From NCBI GenBank assembly GCA_038128265.1, contig JAYPJE010000095.1:1-11873 (forward strand): a DNA stretch of 11,873 nt. The letters run 5' to 3'. Each line of letters opens with the position of its first letter. Position 1 is the stretch's first letter. This DNA comes from Gemmatimonadota bacterium. Lineage in GTDB: Bacteria > Latescibacterota > UBA2968 > UBA8231. Made by a program: the position numbers. Positions 1 through 3,000 of the stretch are shown piece by piece.

Positions 1-3000
1 TGGCAGGCCATCGCTTCCTATATGGAATGGCTCGGCCCCATGCGGCTCATCGATGTCGAACTCGTGCAGCTGCAGATTGTGGCCAAGTTCCGCGGCGAAG
101 CAATCAGCGACGAAGAATTCTGCTAGGGAGGGTGTGATATGACCACGTCACGGGAATTGCCCGATCGCCCTAGCCTAGAAAATTTGAGAAAGCAGGCCAA
201 GGCGCTGCACCGACAGATCACGGCCGGCGATGATGAGGCCGTCGCTCGGGCACGGCAGCACCTGCCGCGCCTGGGCCGCATCGACGCGGCGGATGTAGCC
301 CGAGCGGGCGTAACGCTGCAAGAGGTCCAGCACATTATTGCCGTCGAATACGGCTATGGCAAGTGGCAGGACCTGCTGGCCAGCCTAGACGGACAGCGTC
401 CCAAGAATTGGCCGCGCGCGATTCCCATCCGGCCGGGCTTGCCCAACTTGGAGCGCGAAGCGGCTATGTTGCACCGCGCTGCTCAGGAGGGACGATCTTG
501 GTGTGCCCTGCGCTTCAGAAAAAGCGTCGCCCGCTTGGCCGATGTGCCCGACGATGAAATCGGCCGCGCTGGCGTAACCTTAGACGAGGCGAGGCTAGTC
601 ATCGCCACCGATTACGGCTACGCGAGTTGGACCGATTTGGATGCAGAGGTAGGTCAACTGCGTCCCGTGCACGCCTTCGAGAGCTTGGCCGACCTAGAGG
701 ACGACGAGATCCGCGAGATCATCGTTCGCGTGGGACGCGATCGCCTCGCCATCGCTTTCAAGTCGGTGAGCGACCACTTCAAGAATCGCTTCTCAACCAA
801 TATGACCGCTGCAGAGTGGCGGGCTCTGGTAGAGGCTACCGAAGCGCTCGGTCCCATGCCGCAGACCGCAGTAGAGGCGGTGCAGTTGGAGATCCTGCGC
901 AAGTTCCGCAGCGACGACCCGCTGGTGTGATGGACAAATAGCCGCTCGGGTGGGTCGGTCTACAGCCACCCGCCCGAGCGCGTCGATCGGTGTGCCTTTT
1001 TCGAGTCGGATATAGAGCGCCGTCGTCGGGCGCACGATATCCGCCTCGTAGCGCCTCTTGGCAGTACAGCTCCAATTTTTCAACAGATAAATGCCGCTGA
1101 GAGCGCCAACAAAAAAGCCCTCTGAACGCGTTGGGTCGCTTCCAGAGGGCCGTATAAATGGTGGGCGATACTAGATTTGAACTAGTGACCTCCTGCATGT
1201 CAAGCAGGCGCTCTAACCAACTGAGCTAATCGCCCCCAAACAGCCTCTTTACAGGCCATTTTAAATTCTCTTAATTGCTGACAGGCTGAATAATGTAGAG
1301 CATAAAATACGCAGCGTCAAGCCTGTGCTCTCCCCTCATAGGAGCTATACTATGCCCGTCACATATCGCGTTGGATTGGTCGGCTGTGGGCGCATGGGCG
1401 CCACTATTGACGACGAAGTAAAGGACCGCCCTAACTCCCATATTTTCCTGCCCTACTCGCATGCGGCAGCCATCGTCGCCAGCGAGCGCACCGAGCTTGT
1501 AGCCGTATGCGACCCCGTTCCCGAAAAGGCCGAGACCATTCGCCAGCGCTACGGTGCGCAGAAGGCCTATTCGGATCACGAGGCGATGATCGACGCCGAA
1601 AATCTCGACATAGTCGCCGTTGCTACGCGGCCCGGTCCGCATGCGGCCATTGTATGCTATGCAGCAGAGAAGGGCGTTCGGGGCATCTACTGCGAAAAGC
1701 CGCTGTGCAATGCCGTGAGCGAAATGGATGCGATGCGCGCCGCTTGCAGCAAGGCCGGCGTAAAGTTTAACTACGGCACGCAGCGCCGCTATATGCCGGT
1801 TTATTCGCGCGTGCGCGAAATGGTGGCCGAAGGAGCGATTGGCGACGTGCAGGCTATCGTTGCCCACTGTGGCGCCAGTGCGGCGCAGTGGGGTCTGACC
1901 CACGCTGCCGATATGGTGCTGTTCCTAGCCGGCGATGGCGAGATCGAATCGGTGCAGGGGGCGCTGGTTGACGCGGAGGGCGATTGGCAAGGCGATGTGC
2001 TGAAAAAAGACGCGGCCATTAGCAGCGCCTACGTGCGCTTTAAAAACGGTATACACGCCTATCTCACTGCTTCGGGCGGGTGGGAGTTTGAGGTCAGCGG
2101 CAGCAAGGGCAAGCTGCGCACGCTGAGCAACAGCCTCGACTATCAGCTGCGTCAGATCGATGAACACGGAGAGCTCAAAGAGGTGGAAGTCGCGCCGGTC
2201 GAAATCGGCAGCGGCACGCAGCGCGGCATCGAAGATTTGGCGCGCGCGCTGGACGATGACGGCGATACGATGGGCAATTTAGAGCTGGCCTGCCGCAGTC
2301 AAGAAATGATCTTTGCCGTGGCCGAGTCGCATCGCCTGGGCGGTGCGCGCGTGCCGCTGCCCTTGGCCAATCGCCAATTGGCCATTGCGCCGGACCATTA
2401 TTGAAATGGGACTGCTCTGAAAATTTCCATCGTCACGTTTCAGAAGAACAGAAACGCAGACGTCGAAGCGGCCGAGGGCGAGTACGTCAAACGGCTGTCT
2501 CGCCACGCCGACGTGGAGCTCTGTCCAATTAAGAACTGGAAGGACGACGACGGACTGCCGGCGCGCTTTCTCAAGGCCGGTCGCATCGTCGGGCTCTTTG
2601 TCGAGGGGCGCTCGTATTCTTCGGAAGGATTGGCCGATCAGCTACAGCAGTGGATGAACGGCGGCGTGTCCCATATCGTGCTGGTAATCGGTGCAGCCGA
2701 GGGCATGCCCAGTGGCGTGGTAGGGCAGATCGGCGAAAAGTGGTCGCTGTCGAAGCTGACGTTTTCGCACCAGCTTATACGCCTGCTGCTACTGGAAGCG
2801 CTCTATCGCTCGTTCGATATATTGCACGGCGGTCGCTACCATAAATGAGCTTAGAAATAGCTCATCAATTTGTCCCATAGATCCATGCGGCCGACGCTCT
2901 TCTCGGCGACGATGGGCATCTCGACCAGCAGGCTATCGCCGAGCGAGATCGTTAGGCGACCGAGTGCATCCCCTTCTTCTACGGGAGCGGGTAGCTGTGC

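Follow-up and report, generated by a model that had tools for sequence, protein, structure and literature searches.

A structured RNA leader linked to a helical module that carries flagellar switch domains and other cargo

The FliG-CC operon and its FliM counterpart

The window (the whole stretch of DNA analysed, 11,873 nt) begins within a two-gene operon on the forward strand, the features of which are as follows.

1..126, + strand: 3′ end of a stand-alone ~96-aa FliG-CC gene, first of the two genes in the operon; its 5′ part is lost at the contig start
127..132, + strand: Shine-Dalgarno-like GGAGGG, read from the sequence, directly after the upstream stop and 6 nt before the ATG
139..930, + strand: gene of a 263-aa module-module-FliG-CC protein (ORF translation, Pfam and model)
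148..387, + strand: module copy 1, residues 4-83, helical (profile match E 6.6e-32)
415..657, + strand: module copy 2, residues 93-173, more diverged (profile match E 4.5e-17; same helix pattern in the model)
667..909, + strand: FliG-CC domain of the fusion, residues 177-257; it lacks the last FliG helix and the charges equivalent to R281, D289 and R297
978..1003, + strand: terminator-like hairpin and T run, end of the operon

Evidence for the terminator was weak, since one site was found and 1.0 was expected in shuffled sequences. Its position fits, preceding a convergent tRNA-Val gene.

Translation of bases 1-126 gave a second FliG-CC end, matching the C-terminus of the small gene found upstream of the fusion in relatives. 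Such a stand-alone ~96-aa FliG-CC gene lay directly upstream of the fusion in 14/14 related loci and was damaged in two of them (loci read from 19 with a full-length match, five apparent duplicates being left out). One member of this small protein family matched Pfam FliG_C at E 4.2e-20. The loci closest to the window operon were labelled Latescibacterota or Gemmatimonadota. Translation of the small gene and the fusion gene is likely to be coupled via the GGAGGG at 127..132. The promoter and RNA leader seen before the small gene in relatives (see below) would, in the window, lie beyond the contig start.

A first-pass annotation had paired the 263-aa protein with a 360-aa FliM fusion of the same genome (C93:1070-2152), each with two N-terminal modules. 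A module profile matched each of the two ORFs twice and no other among 48,353 six-frame ORFs, in agreement with that architecture and with the claim that the module is limited to these two proteins of the genome. Pfam FliG_C was found at residues 179-257 of the first (E 5.7e-13) and Pfam FliM at residues 174-349 of the second (E 7.7e-14). Both C-terminal assignments therefore stood, except that the FliG part was not a whole FliG-C: the Pfam match covered profile positions 20-98 of 108, so it is the distal half only (FliG-CC). Against TIGR00207 the FliG fusion scored 33.4 bits (cut-off 226.7) over positions 239-316 of 338 only, and the full N/M/C domain set was not found; the FliM fusion scored 60 bits with the NCBIfam FliM model (cut-off 220).

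Predicted models of the FliG and FliM fusions had pLDDT 82.7 and 88.0. The first contained the FliG C-terminal fold (Z 13.2, rmsd 2.5 over 84 residues; in a separate overlay, rmsd 1.3 over 75 columns) and the second the CheC-like middle domain of FliM (Z 23.9, rmsd 1.8 over 176 residues), reproducing the model quality and overlay reported earlier. When the FliG fusion was used as a query, 39/48 matches, among them the cluster of the window protein itself, covered at least 85% of it (47-99% identity), and 28 FliM fusions were aligned; the earlier counts had been about 40 and about 27 clusters.

Loss of motor contacts was examined at the torque-helix positions R281, D288, D289 and R297 (columns set by the host FliG). 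In 37 aligned fusions the R281-equivalent column held Arg in 2/37 and Lys in 9/37, the D288-equivalent was acidic in 31/37 and the D289-equivalent in 0/37, and Arg occurred in 2/37 at the R297-equivalent, bearing out the claimed loss of the torque-helix arginines. All four charges were kept in the full-length FliG proteins of the host (3/3). In the small upstream proteins (n=11), R281 was lost in 11/11, D289 was Tyr in 11/11 and R297 was kept in 9/11. GGxG, the motif of the FliG-binding loop of FliM, was present in 0/28 FliM fusions, and both host FliM proteins had GGKG. All 28 fusions stopped within 30 residues of the middle domain, and the C-terminal SPOA domain was not found in them. Elsewhere in the genome lay an intact flagellar operon, three full FliG genes and two full FliM genes. 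The fusions thus had no torque charges (FliG), no GGxG loop (FliM) and no assembly domain of any kind, and the proposal that these switch domains are not working motor parts was upheld. Judged by their sequences, neither fusion is a functional FliG or FliM.

A folded leader that occludes the Shine-Dalgarno sequence of module genes

In relatives of the window operon, a leader of ~125 nt, conserved at the nucleotide level, lay 5′ of the small FliG-CC gene. In this genome the only match to a profile of 10 such leaders was C93:955-1069, before the FliM fusion (E 8.6e-9 with the covariance model R1). The 10-leader profile also matched immediately 5′ of module genes in loci labelled Acidobacteriota, Armatimonadota, Dehalococcoidia, Planctomycetota, Actinomycetota, Pseudomonadota and others. 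From 5′ to 3′ the leader comprised the following parts.

5′ half: hairpin P1, a hexamer ending in GC, a short purine-rich link and hairpin P4
Middle: a strand paired with the P1 loop (pseudoknot A), a variable linker and a pyrimidine-rich anti-Shine-Dalgarno (anti-SD) strand
3′ end: hairpin P5, the loop of which pairs with the hexamer (pseudoknot B), then the Shine-Dalgarno sequence (SD) and the start codon

To assess the fold, 87 sequences were aligned by MAFFT with no structural information (24 pairs, 2,042 cells). Of these cells 94.2% were paired, against 22-40% in slid controls. Both sides had changed at 17/24 pairs, with 226 double-change cells against 68.7±6.9 after shuffling; double changes occurred at 5/5 pairs of pseudoknot A and 4/6 pairs of pseudoknot B, these counts being inflated by relatedness and the structure having been derived from those very sequences. 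Pseudoknot B was fully Watson-Crick in 70/87 parsed leaders and in 27.5±3.7 with swapped partners (6/93 were not parsed). Pseudoknot A had a mean energy of -7.05 kcal/mol, against -4.65±0.16 with swapped partners (n=111). The anti-SD/SD helix reached -14.2 kcal/mol, against -10.9±0.3 when swapped, and 0/200 swaps were as good (55 leaders; of 93, 28 were not parsed by the pattern, 10 near-duplicates were dropped and one mis-parsed row was kept). The SD of these genes is thus hidden in a covarying helix. An alternative pairing of the anti-SD with the core, which would free the SD, showed no covariation and was equalled by 171/200 swaps; with this pairing tested, no ligand-independent route for opening the SD helix was found.

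A sigma70-like promoter, TTG-(16-19)-TAnnnT, lay at a fixed distance from 76/111 leaders, against 2 and 0 in shifted windows, and the transcription start was therefore placed at P1. Covarying helices and a fixed place between promoter and start codon mark the leader as a structured cis-regulatory RNA. Computed without pseudoknots, single leaders were not unusually stable (z -1.0, -1.0 and -2.2). Three divergent leaders outside the training set (L065, L136 and L139) kept the helices, by eye, with other letters. Several leader nucleotides were near-invariant, and most invariant positions were paired.

Among nine sources no Rfam family other than tRNA was matched at gathering score; 12 loci gave nothing at E up to 1, and elsewhere only chance rows appeared (E 1.9-9.8). 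The Pistol, HDV, ZTP and c-di-GMP RNA families were ruled out by these Rfam searches alone.

The linkage of leader and module was read from both sides. Starting from the module, the leader was matched at 145/160 loci (84 of the 145 gave training sequences, and many are redundant). Inspected by eye, the 15 unmatched loci were seven actinobacterial, three divergent, two with the 3′ half only and three cut by contig ends; the seven actinobacterial ones were glyoxalase fusions with only the 5′ half of the leader and an in-frame ATG inside P4. Three of three cultured strains outside the training set had the leader before a module gene.

Starting from the RNA, R1 matched in 57/151 genomes of the phylum, with up to 16 copies each. 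From 177 matches, 92 copies were read in 90 loci (the loci of the best 30 genomes plus 60 chosen regions, some repeating training sequences), and 88/92 preceded a module gene, as first gene in 78 and as second gene in 10. In the 78 the module started within 40 codons (five were frameshifted); of the 10, three stood behind a small FliG-CC gene and seven behind one SnoaL-like gene. The other four copies were remnants or preceded a lone small FliG-CC gene. Outside the phylum 18/19 copies preceded a module gene: 9/9 in five genomes picked for having one, and 9/10 new copies from 101 sampled genomes of another phylum, where the tenth, the sole exception, was cut by a contig end. The range was patchy (57/151 genomes in the phylum, 11/101 in the other phylum and 1/151 in a proteobacterial order). 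The leader is linked to the module whatever the C-terminal cargo.

No close co-directional gene followed 67/76 module genes (four of 80 were at contig edges), indicating that the leader controls the module gene itself. No conserved downstream toxin or partner gene was found among these 76. Linkage of RNA and module would also be expected if promoter, leader and module were copied as one block.

Riboswitches are expected before genes of a shared pathway. Here no transporter or biosynthetic gene stood under the leader, and the proportions given above (88/92 and 18/19) tie it to module genes; the invariant positions are mostly paired and no Rfam family matches. These points weigh against the leader being a new metabolite- or ion-sensing translational riboswitch, with the module tied to the same signal as a receptor or oligomerisation tag and the cargo as outputs. 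By the criteria in PMC5737381, two pseudoknots, near-invariant nucleotides, occurrence in many phyla and an SD-sequestering helix are nevertheless usual riboswitch marks, and a stress ligand would agree with the detoxifying cargo (glyoxalase, APH, methyltransferase, SnoaL-like). We regard a riboswitch as the main rival of the mechanism proposed below, a serious though unlikely candidate, and its possible output in the form of a motor brake made of FliG, FliM and MotA fragments as unlikely to the same degree.

The module and its cargo

With 10,518 clusters (50% identity) matched by its profile, the module forms a very large and promiscuous family, found mostly on unrelated cargo; it was often single-copy per genome, and some genomes had up to 16 copies (counted by the cognate RNA). 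Among 43 modules the conserved residues were K/R17 (40), K/R21 (41), R/K69 (36) and Q64 (40), and Q19 and W76 were also conserved. We propose from these residues and the linkage that the module is an RNA-binding domain.

A weak relationship to the N-terminal part of PF20066 (Glyoxalase_8) is suggested by profile scores. The N-termini of the two fusions scored 15.9 and 20.7 bits, and 19/43 modules matched at E up to 1 (best 0.0014), all under the gathering cut-off of 23.7 bits. The first ~60 positions of PF20066 resemble the module, and the leaders of two true members look related by eye, but these two leaders scored no better than E 0.41 with R1.

Pfam scans of the two proteins and the 43 modules gave no known RNA-binding family above cut-off, and neither an ANTAR nor a CAT domain was among the matches listed (25 of 38 weak families). 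A resemblance to OST-HTH/LOTUS was seen in 1/43 modules only, and that identity was rejected. A sequence search of solved structures with the 43-module profile gave no clear match (best natural row E 0.086), fold searches with the two full-length models gave only rows of Z under about 4 in the module range, a search of viral models with the module gave nothing at E < 0.001, and the ESM Atlas returned clusters named "hypothetical protein" only.

The cargo of 60 first-gene proteins was ankyrin (24), FliG_C (11), FliM (4), APH (3), sigma54-AAA (2), BFN (2) and one each of ClpN, methyltransferase, glyoxalase, PcfJ and SnoaL, with none in nine. ClpN, ClpX zinc-binding, Lon substrate-binding, T2SSE N-part and LRR domains were found among 126 of the 150 top profile matches, ClpN being a frequent cargo of the module. 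As a pathway this list is incoherent; its constant is the module. The cargo consists largely of non-catalytic copies of host machine surfaces. A frequent form was module-FliG-CC-MotA-like, in which residues ~66-130 of the host MotA were joined to residues ~197-242 with the membrane helices cut out; in the FliG-CC of this form R281 was kept in 12/16 and E289 in 13/16.

Motor cargo was carried by 22/92 copies, and every genome in which it was seen had FlhA or flagellin genes. It was present in 8/13 genomes with FlhA and 3/26 without, counts that include kin and are not independent. The assemblies of these three were fragmented and contained 2-9 flagellin genes; in two of the three, FliP gave no match. 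The intact window-type fusion was found in genomes of which 6/6 had FlhA, against 29/63 in the family (kin again included); in the one fusion genome without FlhA the fusion was split and only flagellin fragments were found.

These data bear on two further explanations. In the first, the proteins are adaptors or decoys that assemble by module-module contacts, and the leader is an inherited expression signal without contact to the module. Tandem modules occur in both proteins of this genome, the cargo consists of interaction surfaces, FliG-CC with its charges retained is fused to the cytoplasmic face of MotA, and some genomes have as many as 16 copies. Such assembly leaves unexplained why almost all module genes, across phyla, retain an elaborate RNA with compensatory changes, and many genomes have a single copy. 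We consider it improbable. The more specific view of the first-pass annotation, an adaptor pair joined by the shared module, was not supported: the module is promiscuous, mostly on unrelated cargo and often single-copy, with the RNA leader as its constant partner. Neither that leader nor the small FliG-CC gene had been noted in the first-pass annotation.

In the second, promoter, leader and module form a mobile or selfish block that captures nearby gene fragments, most fusions, motor ones included, being neutral debris. The patchy range, several frameshifted or truncated copies and the unrelated genes flanking the cassette loci are in keeping with this, but among relatives of 47-99% identity the window-type operon is still intact and has invariant residues particular to its subfamily, the splice in MotA removes its membrane helices precisely, and motor cargo tracks flagellar genes. 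It is in our view very improbable. A phage origin was also tried and rejected, the core pattern having no exact match in viral contigs.

Proposed mechanism and relation to known systems

Since the 80-residue domain is the only constant and the controlled gene usually stands alone, recognition of the leader by the module is the simplest reading. The leader precedes the gene of its putative binder at 88/92, 9/9, 9/10 and 145/160 loci in the sets above, as would be the case for an autogenous repressor, and a partial host-machine homologue is joined to a small N-terminal domain, as in ClpC2. From the likeness of cargo architecture to ClpC2 we propose an RNA-level version of that system: a portable self-regulating cassette in which the module, bound to the leader of its own gene, represses translation until the cargo is engaged and the module lets go, so that the decoy induces itself. 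We hold this to be probable, if not by much; within it, repression by the module is clearly preferred to activation.

The promoter, the RNA fold, the hidden SD, the linkage and the loss of motor contacts are shown by the data above; we infer all the dynamic steps. A constitutive sigma70-type promoter starts the transcript at the first helix of the ~125-nt leader, which folds into P1, P4, P5, the two pseudoknots and the SD-hiding helix. The N-terminal module would bind the leader and keep it closed, so that the protein limits its own synthesis. The C-terminal cargo would be a non-catalytic surface copy, of the FliG torque domain here and of FliM-M, membrane-less MotA, ClpN, ClpX-ZBD or Lon-N in sister genes. 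By analogy with ClpC2, an attacker or binder of the real machine would engage the cargo, the RNA would be released and more decoy would be made. In the window, the 96-aa FliG-CC may act as the freely titrating decoy and the 263-aa fusion as the sensor-repressor.

A decoy role would fit the cargo list. Enzyme or enzyme-like cargo (methyltransferase, APH, glyoxalase) would not be decoys and counts against it. Because its stator-contact charges are lost, the window-type FliG-CC would be a poor decoy for anything reading the stator face, so another face should matter. An R-x-G-R-D motif was invariant in both the fusion and the small upstream protein and absent from host FliG in the alignment, which suggests a different partner for FliG-CC.

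Still more tentatively, and with more doubt than confidence, the cassette may be a general multi-phylum RNA-level system of self-inducing decoys, each gene sensing and soaking up attackers of its machine. Equally tentative is the list of machines this would cover: flagellar rotor, stator and switch, ClpC, ClpX, Lon, sigma54 activators and pilus ATPases. If so, the cargo list would be a catalogue of machines attacked by antibiotics, toxins or phage proteins. If the decoy reading is true, it would generalise the ClpC2 sponge, imply agents against the flagellar motor and offer a compact, portable feedback part.

No description of the leader-module system was found in the literature searched; subscription journals lay outside its scope, and the supplements of PMC5737381 and PMC11109978 may list the motif. 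A term search of the main texts of PMC2864571, PMC5737381, PMC8632094 and PMC11109978 found no description of it there. Under either mechanism, an uncatalogued double-pseudoknot RNA occurs in about ten phyla, near one-to-one with a domain of more than 10,000 clusters without assigned function, and would be either a new class of riboswitch or a new regulatory pair of RNA and protein. An RNA of 125 nt and a domain of 80 residues suffice to test it, and the cassette is present in cultured non-pathogens such as Variovorax paradoxus, Methylosinus sp. C49 and Gemmatirosa kalamazoonensis.

The motor cargo resembles flagellar FliG, FliM and MotA in fold and sequence (FliG-CC at Z 13.2, FliM-M at Z 23.9, and MotA ~66-130 plus 197-242 at up to 53% identity), but it consists of isolated fragments without the FliF-binding, ARM, and FliM N- and C-terminal parts or the membrane helices. 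The window-type proteins differ further in lacking the torque charges and GGxG and in lying outside flagellar operons.

Mycobacterial ClpC2 keeps its own promoter repressed; once cyclomarin binds the ClpC1-like part of the protein, repression ends and ClpC2 is overproduced as a sponge (PMC10030653). It shares with the present proteins a small helical N-terminal domain joined to a partial host-machine homologue, and with the proposed scheme a repressed own gene on which a ligand of the decoy lifts repression. ClpC2, however, controls transcription, through a palindromic DNA operator to which it binds (PMC10030653), whereas the conserved cis element of the present system is part of the transcript, an RNA whose covarying fold covers the SD, and cargo is freely exchanged. 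The N-terminal domain of ClpC2 was not among the listed sequence or fold matches of the full models or the module profile.

ANTAR and BglG/CAT systems join an RNA-binding domain to varied sensors and act on cognate structured RNA in 5′ leaders, mostly by antitermination, at simple hairpins and on other genes. The present system is like them in a (putative) RNA-binding domain joined to varied domains and in a structured 5′ leader, but its leader is a double pseudoknot that hides the SD and precedes its own gene, and no ANTAR or CAT Pfam match was listed. The leaders of the S4 alpha operon, S15 and L20 are pseudoknotted, give translational feedback by the encoded protein with release by titration, and mimic rRNA. 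The pseudoknotted leader is shared, as would be translational feedback and titration release; in those systems rRNA is the normal ligand, whereas the present cassette attaches a dedicated domain to unrelated cargo. In its working, the cassette would resemble ANTAR/CAT, the ribosomal-protein leaders and ClpC2, and would be a member of none of them.

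Downstream of the operon

Features following the operon of the small FliG-CC gene and the 263-aa fusion gene were as follows (window positions).

943-980: long inverted repeat, imperfect, lying after the fusion stop codon and ahead of the terminator-like site
1159-1235 (-): tRNA-Val(GAC), convergent to the operon
1352-11873: neighbour genes without relation to the operon, encoding a Gfo/Idh/MocA oxidoreductase, a short RlmH-like SPOUT ORF, a D-Ala-D-Ala carboxypeptidase, an M81 peptidase, a PhyH dioxygenase, an AlgH-like protein, NamZ, a flippase-like protein, and one or more GT2 and TPR proteins

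Variants of the leader and its first gene

At seven loci (L183 and L185-L190), the first gene after the leader encoded a SnoaL-like protein of tandem type whose N-terminus included a hydrophobic stretch, and the module gene was second. A longer leader preceded true PF20066 genes at loci L263 and L264; judged by eye, it had the same hexamer/loop complement as the leader and a P5-like stem, and was possibly a second subtype of the leader RNA. At seven actinobacterial loci (L026, L038, L040, L044-L046 and L064), the leader was a short version, with an in-frame ATG within hairpin P4.

Motor genes and membrane-less MotA fusions

The flagellar operon of the source genome was on contig C37. Four full-length genes were solitary, lying outside it:

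C32:5462-6487: full-length FliG gene
C26:13706-14740: full-length FliG gene
C68:12800-13753: full-length FliG gene
C9:3777-4766: second full FliM gene

A stand-alone FliM-middle-like protein of 187 aa (C14:68513-69076) had neither module nor leader.

Relatives likewise had several copies of FliG, and their flagellin genes numbered as many as nine. Genomes G110 and G119 contained several flagellin and FliG-like genes; searches for FlhA and FliP found no match in either, so that contigs may be missing or motor parts may have been retained without an export apparatus.

One or two copies of a soluble MotA without its membrane part were joined to FliG-CC or FliG-N at loci L180, L199, L204, L205, L211, L214, L215 and L247 and in proteins P0044, P0045, P0093 and P0113. 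Such fusions would constitute a rotor-stator interface within a single chain.
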